DNA of 64,000 nucleotides from an uncultured Trueperaceae bacterium. Its GTDB lineage: Bacteria > Deinococcota > Deinococci > Deinococcales > Trueperaceae. The stretch spans positions 1 through 64,000 of the forward strand of contig CAWFFU010000012.1 of the NCBI GenBank assembly GCA_963815215.1, given 5' to 3'. The position numbers were made by a program. This document shows positions 33,001 through 39,000 of the stretch, in pieces (the first letter of the stretch is position 1; the number at the start of each line of letters is the position of its first letter).

Positions 33001-36000
33001 CGCGCTCGTAGTCGATGCGTTCGGTCTCGGGGTCGACCGGGTAGCTGACCACGTGGTAGTTGCGGCCGGAGAAGTTGACGGGGGAACCGTGCGTGAGGTG
33101 CCCACCGTGCGCGAGGTCCATGCCGAGCACGGTGTCGCCGGGCTCGAGCAGCGCGAAGTAGACGGCCAGGTTGGCCGACGACCCGGAGTGCGGCTGTACG
33201 TTCGCCCAGCGGCAGCCGAACAGCGTCTTCAGCCGCGCGATCGCCAGCCGCTCGACCTCGTCGACGATCTCGCAGCCGCCGTAGTAGCGCTTGCCGGGGT
33301 ATCCCTCCGCGTACTTGTTGGTCAGCACCGACCCCACGGCCTCCATCACCTGTGGCGAGGTGAAGTTCTCGGAGGCGATGAGCTCGAGCCCGTCACGCTG
33401 CCGCTCGAACTCGCGGTCGATGAGGGCGAAGAGCTCCTCGTCCCTCAGGGGAGCGCTGTCTGTGACCTGCTGGCTCGTCATGCGCGGAGTATACCAGCGG
33501 GCCCTGGAAGGCCCGGACGCGGGCGCTCCCGTAGTGCCCTCAGGCGGACGGATGGGGGTGTCGTCGTGCTCCGGCGCGGTGCGCCGGCACCTTGGGCAGC
33601 AGCGCTGAGAACGCTTCCGCGAAACGGTGGATGTCGCCCCAATCGGTCAGCTCCAGATCGCTCCGGAGATCGGCGTCGATGCTGGCGCGGCGGGCCATGG
33701 CACGCACGAGGCGCGCCTTGAAGAACCCGTAACGGCTGAAGCGTAGCGCCCCGGCGGCGCTCGCGGCGAGGTCGGGGCGCCAGCCCGTGCGGTTCAGGAA
33801 GTCCTGGAGGTAGCCGTCGGCCTCGGTGCGGTTCTGCGGGTCGCTGGCGGCGGCGCACAGGCAGACCGAGAGGAAGGCGCTGGGGAGGTGCTCGAGCACC
33901 CGTCGGTGGACGCGCACGCCACGCACCAGCGCCGAAGGGTGACGGCCTCGATGCACGCTGGCCGCGACGATCACGCCGTCGGCTCCGCTGGCGCCCGGGA
34001 AGGGGGAGGCGGGGGCGATCCGCACCTCATGATCGTCACCCTGCAACTCCAGCGCCAGGCGCTCGGCGATGTGCTGCGTGTGCCCCTCCCGAGAGGCGTG
34101 CACGATCAGCACCTTGGCCATGCCGTTCCTTCCGCCGGAGTCGTGCCCCGGTCCGCCCCGGACCGCTTCGACTCAGCCTGCGCGTCGACCCCTGTGTCCA
34201 CCAGAGGCGCATGTCCCTTGCGGCGATCGCCGGCATCAGCGGGCCGCGGCGCCTCGAGCACGCGCGGGCGACGGCAACAGCTTGTCGAGCGCGGCCTCGA
34301 GCGTGCCCCACAGGAACGTGAATCCCTGTTCGTCCAGCCGCGCCGGCACCACCCGCGCACTCTGCAGCAGGACCCCGTCGGCAAGCCGGCCGAGCACGAG
34401 CCGCAGCACCCAGGCGGGCGCCGGGAACCAGAACGGACGGCGCAGGCGCCGGGCGGCCTCCCGAGCCAGGTCGCGCTGGCGCACGGCTTCGGGTGCGACG
34501 GCGTTGTACACCCCCTCGCACGACGGCTGCTCGATCACGAACAGGTAGGCGCGGGCCAGGTCGTCGGCGTCGATCCACGGGAGCCACTGCGTGCCCCGGC
34601 CCAGGCGCCCGCCGAAGCCCAGCTTGATGGGCATCAGCAGGCGTTGCCAGGCGGGCGCATCCTTGGCCAGCACCACGCCGGTGCGCAGCACGCACAGCCG
34701 GACGCGCGCCGCAGCCGGCGCCGCGGCGGCCTCGCTCGCCTCCGCCACCGGAGCGAGCAAGAAGGCCTCTCCCGGCCCCGCGCCTTCGTCGAGCACCTCG
34801 TCGCCGCGCTGACCGTAGTACCCCGTCACCGAAGCCTGGACCAGCACCTCGGGCGGCCGTCGGCACCGTTGGAGCGCAGTGACCAGGGTCGTTGCGCTGT
34901 CGACGCGGCTGCTCAGCAGTCGGTCCCTGTGGGCCGGTCCCAGGCGCCCGTCAGCGATCGAGGAGCCCGCCAGGTTCACCACGGCAGCGGCTCCCTCCAG
35001 GGTGGACGTGAGCCGCGACAGCGCCTCCTCGTCCCCGGCGCGGGCCGCGTCCGGCCTCCAGGCCACCGGTGTGGCGCCGGAAGGCTCGGGGCCGGTGACC
35101 TGACGCGTCAGCACGGTGACGTCGAAGCGTTCGCGGGCCGCGGTGACCAGATGGCGGCCGACCACGCCCGAGGCTCCGGCGATGACGATGCGGGAACGGG
35201 ACATGCTCCCACGCTAGCAGGGGGACCTCGCCCAGGACCGTACGGCAGACGCTTGTCCCCGCCTCGCGGCGTCGTACCGGCGCGGGAGAGAGGGTCCCGG
35301 CCACGCCCGCGGGGAGATTCGCTATGCTGGCGCCCAGCAACGTCACGTTCGAGCAGCAAGCACGCCTTGGAGGTGTTGTGTGTCCGACGACGAGCGAACC
35401 GCTCCGGAGTCCGGGAAGACGACTGCCGATGCGGCGTACAAACCCTACGGCGCCCTCTTCGTGACGATCGTCCTGGGGGCGGTCATCGTCGGCTTCTGGG
35501 CGCTGATGTTCGTGCTGGCACGGCTCCGGGGCTGAGGGTATGGACGAGCGCCAACACCAGGTCATCGCGCGCTGGGAGCGGCGCTGGCTCGCGGCCGGAG
35601 TGGCCATGCTGGTGGTCTTCGTGGTGCTGATCGCCTACTCCCTGATCACGCAGGGCGGGCACATCGTGCACGGCGGGGGCAAGTTCGATCCCAACACCGT
35701 GCGGAACGTTCCGCTGTTCGCCTCGCCGGGGGTGCGCGAGCTCTCCAGCGGGGCCTTCCAGGTCAGCGTCGTAGCACGCGCGTTCGCTTTCGACCCCGCA
35801 GACATCGTGCTCCCGGTCGGGGCCAGGACGCGCTTCTACCTCACCAGCGTGGACGTGCTCCACGGCTACCTGATCCAGGGCACGGCCGTGAACATCGAGC
35901 TGATCCCCGGTCAGCTCGCCTACTTCGACTTCACCTTCGCCCACCCGGGGACCTTCCACGTGGTGTGCGACGAGTACTGTGGCATCAACCACCAGGACAT

Positions 36001-39000
36001 GGTGGGCACCATCACCGTGCTTCCGGTGGCGGCGTACCGTCAGCGCCGGGCGGCCGGCAACCTGCCGGGGCACGTCGTCCCCCCCGCAGCGGCCGGGAGC
36101 GCTGCCGCAGCGGCGCAGGCCGCGGCCCCCGTCGACGGTCAGCAGGTCTTCGACGCCAACTGTGCCGCCTGCCATCAGCAGGATGGCCAGGGCCACCCGG
36201 GCGCCTTCCCGCCGCTGGCAGGGCACGCGCCGAAGCTCTACCTGGCCGACCGCGGCTACCCCGTCGACGTGCTCCTGTACGGTCTACAGGGTCCGATCAC
36301 GGTGGCGGGGAAGGGCTACAACAACGTCATGCCCGGCTGGTCGCAGCTCTCCGACGCGCAACTGGCCGCCGTGGCGGACTACATGATGCGCGCCTGGGGC
36401 AACGACGCCGCTCTGGGACCTGACTACCAGCCCTACACCGCCAAGGATTTCGCGGACGCGCGCGCCGCCTCCAAGAGCGCCGCGGACGTGCACGCGCTGC
36501 GCGGAGAGCTGGGGTTGCCGTGAGCCGCGTCCCGTACGCCACCTCACACATGTCCGAAGGGAGCCAGGCATGGCGGTAGGTACGTTCTCCACCTCGACGT
36601 CCGCCGCCGCCCGCTGGCGCCCCGAGAAGCGGGTGACGGGCGCGTTCCTGATCACCGGACTGATGGCGCTCCTGGTCGGCGCGCTGCTCGGCCCCTTCCA
36701 GGCCATGAACTACGGCGACGTCAACCTCTACCGCTATCTGCCGTTCCTCAAGTCGTACTACCAGGGACTCACCCTGCACGGCGTGCTGAACGTGTTGGTG
36801 TTCACCACCTTCTTCAACTGCGGGGTGCTCGTCTACTTCCCGGCGCGCGAGCTGGACGTGCGGCCCTCGATGGCGTGGTTGTGGAGCTCGTACGTGGTGA
36901 TGATGGTGGGTCTGGCGCTGGCCGGGATCGCCATCATGTCGGACAGCTCGACCGTGCTCTACACCTTCTATCCGCCGTTGCAGGGGAGCTGGGGCTTCTA
37001 CACCGGCCTCGCGCTGGTGGTGGTCGGGAGCCTCATGGTGGCCTTCGAGGTGGTGCGGCTGCGGGCCCGCTGGCGCCGCGACAACCCCGGCAAGGCCACG
37101 CCGATCGTCACCTTCATGTCGGTCACGACCATGCTGATGTGGGCGCTGGCGTCGGTCGGCATCGTCCTCGAGGTCGTGGTGTACCTGATCCCCTGGTCGG
37201 CAGGGTGGATCACCGGCGTCGATCCCGAGCTCGCGCGCACGCTGTTCTGGTTCACCGGTCACCCCATCGTGTACTTCTGGCTGCTGCCGGCGTACATCTC
37301 CTGGTACGCCTTCATCCCCAAGCAGGTCGGCGGGGAGCTCGTCTCCGATACGCTGACGCGGCTGGCGTTCCTGATGTTCATGCTGTTCAGCACGCCGGTC
37401 GGGTTCCATCACCAGTTCACCGACCCCGGCATCTCGGGCGGCTGGAAGCTCGTCCAGAACATCCTGACGTTCTTCGTGGTGGTCCCCAGCCTGCTCACGG
37501 CCTTCACCGTGACGGCGTCGATGGAGATCGGCGCGCGCCGCAAGGGGGGGCGAGGGATGCTCGGCTGGATCCGCAAGCTCCCCTGGGACGACGGCGGCTT
37601 CGTGGCCCAGGTGCTGGCGATGATCTCCTTCGTCTTCGGCGGCGCCGGCGGGATCGCCCTCGCCAGCTTCAACCTCAACGTGCTGGTCCACAACACCGCC
37701 TTCATCCCCGGCCACTTCCACATCACCGTCGGCACGGCCGTCACCCTCACCTTCTTCGGCATGACGTTCTGGCTCATCCCGCACCTCACCGGCCGCCGGC
37801 TGTTCTCGCCGCGCCTGGCGTTGTGGTCGGCCTGGACCTGGTTCGTGGGGATGATGCTGTTCGCGGTCGGCATGCACTGGGAAGGGTTGCTCGGCGTTCC
37901 GCGGCGCGCCTGGATCTCCAACATGAGCCCGGCGCTCCAAGGCTTCTACGATGGCGCCCGCGTGCCGGAGGTGATCACGGCCGTCAGCGGGGTGATCCTG
38001 CTGCTGGCGGTGATCTTCTACTTCACGGTGCTCTTCGGTACGCTCTTCTCCGCGAAGCGCGTCGAGGAGGACAGTATCGCCATCCCCTTCCCGGACCGCG
38101 AGCCGGCGCACGACGACCGCATGGTGCTGGCGCTCGACCGGCTCGGCCTGTGGTTCGTGCTCGCCGTCGCGATCGTGCTGGTCGCCTACCTCCCCACGCT
38201 GATCCACATGTTCACGACGCAGCTCGGGCTGCCCGGCGTGCGTCTGTGGTGAGGGTGCCGGCGTCCGCCTGAACTCCGACAACGTTGTCCGGCATACCGA
38301 CCGGGTTCGCGCAAGGACGCGCGCCCGCTGCCAAGGCCGGGTCGGCCGCATGATGGTGGAGGTGGGACGCGCCCCGACGCACGCGGTGCGGGACGCGGAC
38401 CCCGGAGAGGGGGAGCCATGGCTCTCCTGGAAGGCAAGGTTGGACTGGTCACGGGTGCGTCGTCGGGCATCGGACGCGCGGTCGCCGAGACGTACGCCCG
38501 CGAAGGTGCGATGGTGCTGGTGTCTGACGTGGACGAGCGCGGAGGCGCGGAGACGGTCGAGCGCATCCGGGCGGCGGGGGGCGACGCCTTCTTCGAGACC
38601 GGCGACGTCGCCGACCCGGAGGTGGGCGAACGCCTGGTCGCGCGGGCCGTGGAGCGCTACGGTGCGCTCCACCTGGCCTGCAACAACGCCGGCATCGGCG
38701 GAGCGCAGGCACCGACGGCGGAGTACCCGGTCGAGGACTGGCGGAGGATCCTCGAGATCAACCTCTCGGGTGCGTTCTACGGCATGCGCGCGCAGATCCC
38801 CGCGATGCTCGACGCGGGCGGCGGCGCCATCGTGAACATGGCCTCGATCCTGGGCGCGGTCGGCTTCGCGAACTCGTCGGGCTACGTCGCTGCCAAGCAC
38901 GGCCTGGTGGGGTTGACCAAGACCGCCGCCATGGAGTACGCCGCGCAGGGCGTGCGGGTCAACGCGGTGGGCCCCGGTTTCATCGATACCCCGTTGCTGG

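Follow-up and report, generated by a model that had tools for sequence, protein, structure and literature searches.

Gene order and family assignment

The survey's finding had placed a ba3-type oxidase operon, ordered IIa, II, I, at 35380-38252 of the window (the whole 64,000-nucleotide stretch of Trueperaceae DNA analysed here), and open reading frames in that order are indeed found there, all on the + strand:

35380-35535, + strand: subunit IIa, CbaD-like; 51 aa, one membrane helix
35540-36523, + strand: subunit II with a c552-type cytochrome c domain; 327 aa, single open frame
35546-35656, + strand: N-terminal membrane helix of subunit II, residues 3-39 (PF09125; helix 3-39 in the model)
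35663-36025, + strand: CuA cupredoxin domain, residues 42-162 (H108, C143, E145, C147, H151, M154)
36026-36130, + strand: linker, residues 163-197; a short helix, then an Ala/Pro/Gly-rich stretch, variable in length
36131-36520, + strand: c552-fold heme c domain, residues 198-327 (C208-x-x-C211-H212, axial M264, c552 C-terminal extension)
36570-38252, + strand: subunit I, B-family oxygen reductase; 560 aa; ligand and active-site residues H70, H231, Y235, H280, H281, H382, H384

A scan for promoters and terminators found none. Subunit I matches Pfam COX1 and has 1ehk_A as its best PDB match (E 2e-187). In a tree that compared it with 8 other B-family rows, with no A- or C-family outgroup, it falls in the Thermus-type clade with the Thermus and Deinococcus enzymes (support 100/100), bearing out its proposed homology to ba3 subunit I. 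As in the B family, the CuA-bearing subunit II has a single helix and a separate subunit IIa accompanies it. Subunit IIa scores 19.5 bits against CoxIIa (PF08113; E 8.6e-4), just below the cut-off of 20.7, and its residues P22-Y-G24-A and W40 match the P-X(1-3)-G-T/A and Trp marks given in section 9 of PMC3128077. By a crude pattern search, 39 of 54 fused loci have a IIa-like reading frame upstream. We rejected an A-family caa3 assignment, as the CtaD model gave 100 bits against a cut-off of 671 and the operon lacks subunit III; the genome's own A-type oxidase operon is located elsewhere. At the level of sequence we regard the enzyme as confirmed to be a B-family (ba3-type) oxygen reductase, with heme types that are predicted; a heme A synthase gene in the genome makes heme a3 in the enzyme possible. 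The genome also encodes a bc-type complex and cytochrome c assembly genes, and a search for bd oxidase gave no PF01654 match in this 97%-complete genome.

Conservation of the active site and the K-type channel

Residue numbers were transferred from T. thermophilus through a locus with a subunit I match to 1ehk_A that spans 1-562. Window residues H70, H231, H280, H281, H382 and H384 correspond to T. thermophilus H72, H233, H282, H283, H384 and H386. All six of these heme/CuB ligands are present in 48/48 fused subunit I rows, as is the equivalent of the cross-link Tyr237 of helix VI, which is Y235 in the window. Glu at the equivalent of position 235 marks A1 enzymes; here that position (T. thermophilus numbering) is Ile in 46 rows and Leu in 2, and Glu in none of the 48. 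In subunit II, the CuA ligands H/C/C/H/M are kept in 119/119 rows and the ligands of the heme c domain are invariant in 64/64, so the CuA, CxxCH and His/Tyr motifs are intact, as had been reported. The K-type channel listed in passages of PMC3141039 (Glu15(II), Thr315, Tyr248, Thr312, Tyr244, Ser309) has as its window equivalents E13 of the subunit II helix, at the channel entry, and T313, Y246, T310, Y242 and S307; these are conserved in 47-48 of 48 subunit I rows and, for the Glu, in 118 of 119 subunit II rows.

Subunit II joins a CuA domain to a c552-fold domain

PDB matches, Pfam and a predicted model all divide subunit II, as proposed, into a CuA part like ba3 subunit II and a heme c part homologous to c552. 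Residues 3-160 best match T. thermophilus ba3 subunit II (1ehk_B, E 5e-38) and residues 196/199-326 best match T. thermophilus c552 (2fwl_A, 1c52_A; E 1e-29), while Pfam assigns COX2-transmemb (5-37), COX2 (88-155) and Cytochrom_C (199-285). In the model (mean pLDDT 90.6, pTM 0.68), the CuA domain superposes on 2cua_A with Z 18.3 and 1.8 A over 119 residues, and the heme c domain on 1c52 with Z 23.6 and 1.0 A over 129/131 residues. The latter has a class I c fold with CxxCH, a distal Met and a C-terminal extension, as is typical of the Thermus-type c552 fold. The two domains are similarly conserved, with mean top-residue frequencies of 0.61 (heme c) and 0.66 (CuA).

The linker contains the lowest pLDDT blocks of the model (66-75), its alignment columns 172-197 are 46% gaps, and the spacing from the CuA Met to CxxCH runs from 30 to 62 residues (median 39.5) in the best 120 of 366 homologue clusters. 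No signal-peptide-like stretch was seen in it. By mutual information over 180 fused sequences (effective depth 87), pairs between the domains are not enriched (21 of the top 50 against 50% expected), and a complex prediction of the CuA domain, the c domain and heme scored 0.01 (mark 0.32).

The fusion is nearly fixed in Trueperaceae and recurs elsewhere

The earlier count of full-length fusions, 60/127 Trueperaceae, was reproduced, each as a single full-length match. The survey's finding had called the arrangement common in the family; it is widespread, but this understates it, as 66 of the 127 relatives have this subunit II and 65 of these are fused, the remaining one being cut by a contig end. 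The fusion is thus essentially fixed among holders of the oxidase. It occurs in 0/158 genomes with this subunit II from other Deinococcota families. As a Trueperaceae trait, however, it is not exclusive, for the same fusion is found in Proteobacteria, including the cultured Acidiphilium iwatense, and a second one, with a different c domain on subunit II, in Caldilineaceae, where the domain was joined independently at the same place. In all 120 homologue clusters listed of the 366 found, which include the window's own protein and extend down to 41% identity, a single chain has the CuA motif and, beyond it, one CxxCH; P0121 carries two c domains on subunit II. A search for other long B-type forms of subunit II, with a profile from 26 sequences, was crowded out and yielded 4 proteins.

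Subunit I, earlier seen next to the fusion in 12/12 loci, directly follows it in 30/30 loci of one set, the window among them, and in 27/29 fused loci of another, which shares some genomes with the first; the other 2 stop at contig ends. In DNA contigs of 4 sequencing runs the operon was present only in pieces, and among the pieces listed none spanned the whole linker.

Comparison with known systems

The operon resembles T. thermophilus ba3 (1EHK) in its IIa-II-I gene order, one-helix subunit II, CuA ligands, active site and K-channel residues, and its c domain, as modelled, superposes over its whole length on T. thermophilus c552 (1C52; fragment complex 2FWL). It differs in having the c552-type domain and CuA on one chain. 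T. thermophilus Asp372 is replaced by Asn in the window and in 31/48 rows, a change (D372N) that a part of PMC10766771 reports to retain pumping.

The parallel with caa3 drawn in the survey holds in that both join a cytochrome c domain C-terminally to the CuA domain, and with similar spacing (2YEV, Bacillus CtaC; 41 residues in this genome's caa3). In contrast, caa3 has an A-family core, a two-helix subunit II, a subunit III and a c domain that is shorter and of another type (2yev_B E 5e-16 against 1e-29 for c552). Superposing the whole subunit II model, whose domain arrangement is of low confidence, on caa3 subunit II gave 13 A rmsd and no common arrangement. Some haloarchaeal B-type oxidases, as described in passages of PMC3128077, have halocyanin fused to subunit IIa and so also tether a redox partner to a B-family subunit, although that donor is a blue-copper protein on IIa and ours a heme c on II. 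The 36 subunits II treated there are 13-29 kDa, and section 9 and those passages do not mention a heme c fusion. The three-domain heme-Cu nitrite reductase of Ralstonia pickettii (3ZIY) and the di-heme c550 of T. thermophilus also tether a related c domain to a redox protein by a linker, but these are soluble enzymes or carriers and not a membrane oxidase.

A probable tethered electron-entry domain

From sequence, the c domain is probably a tethered electron-entry cytochrome that feeds CuA, the B-family counterpart of caa3, by a docking that we infer. Subunit II would be exported on its N-terminal helix and receive its heme from the cytochrome c maturation machinery of the cell. Outside the membrane, heme c would draw electrons from the bc complex or from other periplasmic cytochromes and hand them to the CuA on its own chain, from where they would move to the low-spin heme and the high-spin heme/CuB site, where O2 would be reduced with proton uptake via the K-type channel. 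The cell would gain a donor at high local concentration and an oxidase that does not depend on free c552; the chemistry is probably ordinary. As the linker is variable and of low complexity, we somewhat favour a loosely tethered, transiently docking domain over a rigidly packed module.

Several observations support this reading. The metal ligands, cross-link Tyr and K-channel residues are kept; the c domain is whole, has His and Met as heme ligands and is about as conserved as the CuA domain; its attachment point and spacing resemble those of this genome's caa3 subunit II; the fusion is retained in 65/66 family genomes with the oxidase; the genome has the bc-type complex, heme A synthase and cytochrome c assembly genes; and in T. 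thermophilus the CuA of ba3 physiologically receives its electrons from c552, as passages of PMC3141039 and PMC3561395 state. In two of five genomes checked, G094 (97% complete) and G097 (96%), the fused domain is the only full-length c552-type domain found. The lack of inter-domain covariation at effective depth 87 argues against it. As this genome and the other 3/5 relatives checked have further c552-type domains, CuA could also be fed in trans. Nor need the fused domain be an obligatory route, since the pathway of T. thermophilus c550 appears to work without that protein's c552-like C domain, according to a part of PMC3561395.

The domain might instead be a membrane-held c552 buffer serving other partners, with subunit II mainly an anchor and CuA fed by free cytochromes. 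Consistent with this, the same module, sometimes in 2-3 copies, sits on oxidase subunit IV and other single-helix anchors, ba3-fused and anchor-fused copies are sisters in G085, P0121 has its two c domains, and this genome retains a free c552. We nevertheless consider this unlikely given the near-total retention of the domain on subunit II, its being the only one found in G094 and G097, and the independent use of the same place by Caldilineaceae with another c domain, as in caa3. Cleavage in the Ala-rich linker after export, releasing an ordinary ba3 and a soluble c552, is very improbable: the window linker does have Ala-x-Ala runs just ahead of the c domain, but those of many relatives (e.g. 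P0026, P0027, P0095) are acidic or short, without a hydrophobic core, so that no conserved cleavage signal is evident. It is more doubtful still that the enzyme is a B-derived NO reductase rather than an O2 reductase, although eNOR can be encoded in Trueperaceae genomes (PMC11214002, supplement); in eNOR, bNOR, sNOR and gNOR, passages of PMC11214002, PMC3475470 and PMC8756737 report the active-site Tyr or a His ligand to be replaced, and here both the Tyr237 equivalent and all six His are present throughout and subunit I groups with T. thermophilus-type ba3, so we rejected each of these assignments. Finally, we discarded an assembly error or frameshift joining two genes, for which nothing was found and which has virtually no chance, because the same single frame recurs in 60 relatives, the best 120 of 366 protein clusters and one isolate genome.

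Origin of the c552 module and direction of change

The survey's phrase "its own c552 donor" stands as regards homology to c552; descent from the Thermus donor itself would be a further, tentative step. In Trueperaceae, c552 is a module tethered to several membrane proteins. In a quick tree of 79 c-domain rows, the majority of the fused domains group with modules tethered elsewhere (SH-aLRT 90), and the G085 sister pair has SH-aLRT 100; a careful tree of 36 rows is without resolution at its base, and neither tree gives the fused domain a firm link to the Thermus donor. The net charge is -5 for the window c domain and -10 for the fused family (median); free c552s have medians of +3 in the Thermus type, mostly basic, and -12 in Trueperaceae. 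Since the free Trueperaceae proteins are acidic too, we take acidity to be a family trait.

In the best subunit I tree, fused lineages are basal and the unfused Thermus/Deinococcus group is nested inside (96/90). Support for the node behind the paraphyly of the fused set is only 89/92, and the alternative of a single fused clade, as a single gain would give, was not rejected by the AU test (p 0.226). Tentatively, and with the odds rather against it, the fusion may be ancestral to the whole Thermus-type ba3 clade, lost from T. thermophilus ba3 and kept as "cba3" in Trueperaceae and several Proteobacteria.

Significance

A carrier built into an oxidase subunit is well known in the A family. In keeping with the survey, our literature searches turned up no account of a B-family subunit II that bears a heme c domain, and a part of PMC11214002 gives the usual B-family description as a plain CuA subunit with a separate carrier as donor. 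Database labels for the fused proteins read only "c-type cytochrome" or "subunit II", and thus subunit I-based surveys miss the architecture. For the c552-CuA pair, the soluble-fragment complex 2FWL was the only PDB entry found in the searches made. A natural chain that unites the two partners of the best-studied B-family system would make electron entry measurable and imageable on an intact enzyme, an opportunity that caa3 gave for the A family, and a cultured host exists in Acidiphilium iwatense. If the fusion were ancestral, T. thermophilus ba3, now served by a separate c552, would trace back to an enzyme with a cytochrome-bearing subunit II; counting the Caldilineaceae fusion as well, B-family oxidases with heme c would then form a class that recurs, next to caa3.

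A c552-type domain on subunit II of a ba3-type oxidase

The survey's finding had described a ba3-type oxidase operon in the order IIa, II, I, and all three genes were confirmed at its positions on the + strand:

35380-35535, + strand, subunit IIa (open reading frame)
35540-36523, + strand, fused subunit II (open reading frame; Pfam domains)
36570-38252, + strand, subunit I (open reading frame)

In the single frame of subunit II, Pfam recognises a membrane helix followed by CuA and cytochrome c domains. In a PDB search, its N-terminal half matched T. thermophilus ba3 subunit II (E 5e-38), and the best cytochrome match to its C-terminal part was T. 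thermophilus c552 (E 1e-29), whereas the caa3 chain matched the c domain more weakly (E 5e-16). An AlphaFold2 model built from 64 sequences (pLDDT 90.6, pTM 0.68) placed residues 197-327 on 1c52 (Z 23.6, 1.0 A over 129 residues) and residues 44-162 on 2cua (Z 18.3). As a CuA motif and one downstream CxxCH share one chain in all 120 homologue clusters listed (of 366 found), an assembly error was ruled out as the source of the fusion.

A Flavodoxin_5 protein (33540-34121) and a divergent epimerase/DUF1731 protein (34236-35204) flank the operon, with a short-chain dehydrogenase downstream (38418-39173) and porphobilinogen deaminase farther along (44761-45654). No adjoining oxidase assembly genes were seen by Pfam in the operon flanks.

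The catalytic core is that of the B family

Residue numbers come from a locus with a subunit I that aligns to 1ehk_A over 1-562. The window has all six His ligands, Tyr237 and the residues that an excerpt of PMC3141039 names for the K-type channel. Of 48 fused subunit I rows, 47-48 keep them, and the CuA ligands are conserved in 119/119 subunit II rows, some rows being duplicates from the same genome. Asn occupies the Asp372 position in the window and in 31 of the 48 rows; a D372N variant still pumps protons, according to a passage of PMC10766771. Subunit IIa carries the motif and Trp given for IIa in part of PMC3128077. From its sequence, the operon is predicted to encode a B-family O2 reductase. 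We rejected a NOR, as the six His ligands and the Tyr237 equivalent are kept, and also an A-type enzyme. The genome has genes for heme A synthase and for cytochrome c assembly, and besides this operon its one heme-copper oxidase is encoded by an A-type caa3 operon.

The fusion is conserved and widespread

Named relatives assign the window to Trueperaceae, a record with that title being 89% identical. Using the CuA half of subunit II as query (E <= 1e-20), we found matches in 66 of 127 Trueperaceae relatives, a set that includes the unpublished genome G090 (no match). The full-length fusion recurred in 60 of the 127, reproducing the survey's count; five of the other six matches carry a CxxCH domain, bearing out that the fusion is common in the family, and one stops at a contig end 19 residues past the CuA Met. 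In other families of the phylum, whose names were inferred from grouping with named loci, 158 of 236 genomes matched the CuA half. The fusion was absent from these 158, where the 160 open frames (134-274 aa) are too short, and the 23 frames inspected, which include most of the longest, stop 8-31 residues past the CuA Met.

Among the best 80 of 572 loci in a scan of named genomes, the same fusion adjoins a B-type subunit I in the isolate Acidiphilium iwatense and in MAGs of Thiobacillus, Ectothiorhodospiraceae (two) and an unclassified proteobacterium, as well as in one labelled Janthinobacterium; the other 51 loci of these 80 are unfused. A match labelled Pleomorphomonas, on a contig of 3.6 kb, is similar to the Trueperaceae proteins and may reflect a binning error. 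The Acidiphilium cluster has nine members, and its NCBI and UniRef entries are titled merely 'c-type cytochrome'. According to a portion of PMC10715153, A. iwatense has no complete operon for the oxidase typical of Alphaproteobacteria. An ScdA/hemerythrin gene (L111:1082-1789) lies ~2 kb upstream of its fused operon. The fusion is real, conserved and wider spread than the survey had it.

No description of this fusion was found, in line with the survey's claim, within the literature searched; subscription reviews of heme-copper oxidase classification, mostly outside that search, could mention such a fusion. In the PMC11214002 supplements, one Trueperaceae genome is credited with a B1 oxidase, and the portion searched had no match to 'heme c' or 'subunit II'.

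Probable electron entry through the fused domain

Excerpts of PMC3141039 and PMC3561395 give c552 as the donor to ba3 CuA, and in caa3 the c domain is covalently attached and faces CuA (PMC5286356, in part). The proposed parallel to caa3 holds, the window enzyme being its B-family counterpart with a c domain fused past CuA. CuA, the His/Met heme c site and the catalytic core are all intact in sequence. The c domain would be matured outside the membrane, and electrons would pass from the bc complex, whose genes are present, or from other cytochromes to heme c and on to CuA in cis. The window has a spacing of 53 between the CuA Met and CxxCH, against 41 in the caa3 of the same genome; the range is 30-62 (median 39.5) across the 120 proteins listed, with values of up to 83 in loci. 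Since this is comparable with caa3, it is plausible that the c domain reaches CuA. The poor conservation of the linker and its Ala content of 32% suggest mobility, as in tethered shuttles like cytochrome cy of Rhodobacter (bioRxiv 10.1101/2020.06.27.175620, in part). Counting against cis entry, covariation between CuA and c domains showed no enrichment, further c552 copies often exist beside the fused one, and the c550 pathway seems able to do without the c552-like domain of c550 (PMC3561395, excerpt). On balance, we consider cis electron entry through the fused domain probable.

Origins of the fusion

A careful tree of 41 subunit I rows chosen from 106 unites every fused operon with the unfused Thermus/Deinococcus-type operons in one clade (100/100). 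The unfused operons make up a clade nested within it (96/90), and the basal branches are fused lineages, a topology that allows an ancestral fusion lost once. Constraining the 22 fused rows to one clade cost 4.7 log-likelihood units and was not rejected (AU p 0.226), so one gain with later transfer to Proteobacteria is an equally good fit, and it suits a family that readily appends c552. FastTree on all 106 rows required two changes.

A profile search over 1.84 billion representatives recovered P0187, a B-type subunit II bearing a different c domain, among 17 full-length clusters, one named Caldilineaceae; the closest relatives of these clusters are unfused. This c domain has only the heme-binding stretch in common with the window's, and no c552 match to it was listed (best 60 of 76). 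Subunit I with the His-x3-Tyr motif is the next gene in one of two fused P0187-type loci, the other ending too early. Heme c fusion to B-family subunit II therefore arose at least twice.

The palindrome GGGACA-WW-TGTCCC lies upstream of ba3 operons at L002, L003, L005-L008, L010, L039-L042 and L046. With <=1 mismatch to GGGAC-N4-GTCCC, 9/54 fused and 11/73 unfused loci matched; seven fused loci have the exact palindrome, and Thermus-like loci have it twice over. Shuffled fused loci gave a mean of 2.4 and a maximum of 10 loose matches, so the loose count by itself is weak. The window has a degenerate copy alone at the same offset (35284-35298), with none within 2 mismatches. The palindrome, which we take to resemble DosR/NarL-type boxes, is a likely candidate for a regulator site.

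The c552 module in Trueperaceae

At least one c552-type domain (E <= 1e-25) occurs in 121 of the 127 relatives, in free proteins, on Pfam COX4_pro (subunit IV) and on other single-helix anchors. The genome's free c552-like gene, 42% identical, is divergent from the caa3 operon (L169, G000:C11:35500-48000). That operon runs on into CtaG, Rieske and a fusion of cytochromes b and c; just upstream is an apparent PQQ-type dehydrogenase cluster (from translations), and another bc-type operon is located at C11:476000-480000. In genomes G094 and G097, no full-length c552-type domain was found besides the fused copy; G098, G025 and G031 have others. The Deinococcus-type genome G197 has an unfused ba3 operon (L043), and no full-length c552-type domain was found with this query in the part of the genome searched (best E 1e-9).

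In a quick tree of 79 domains (two from unpublished G090, which are the sole basis of no claim), most fused copies group with other tethered modules, apart from free c552 (SH-aLRT 90); a careful tree of 36 domains has no resolution at its base. Of the survey's reading that subunit II carries its own c552 donor, homology to c552 stands, and descent from the Thermus donor gene does not find support in these trees.

Other arrangements occur as well. In P0156, a further c552-type domain follows the c domain of an A-type caa3 subunit II. Among B-type subunits II, P0121 carries two c552 domains, and about 140 residues separate the domains of P0127. Proteins at L056, L193, L197, L199 and L201 have one predicted membrane segment without a Pfam match and a C-terminal c552-type domain. 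Subunit IV-like proteins with long acidic linkers and 1-3 c552-type domains occur at L051, L185, L188, L192, L194, L195 and L200 (PF03626 confirmed on L051, L185 and L188). Such c552-bearing subunit IV is a second route to a cytochrome-tethered oxidase.
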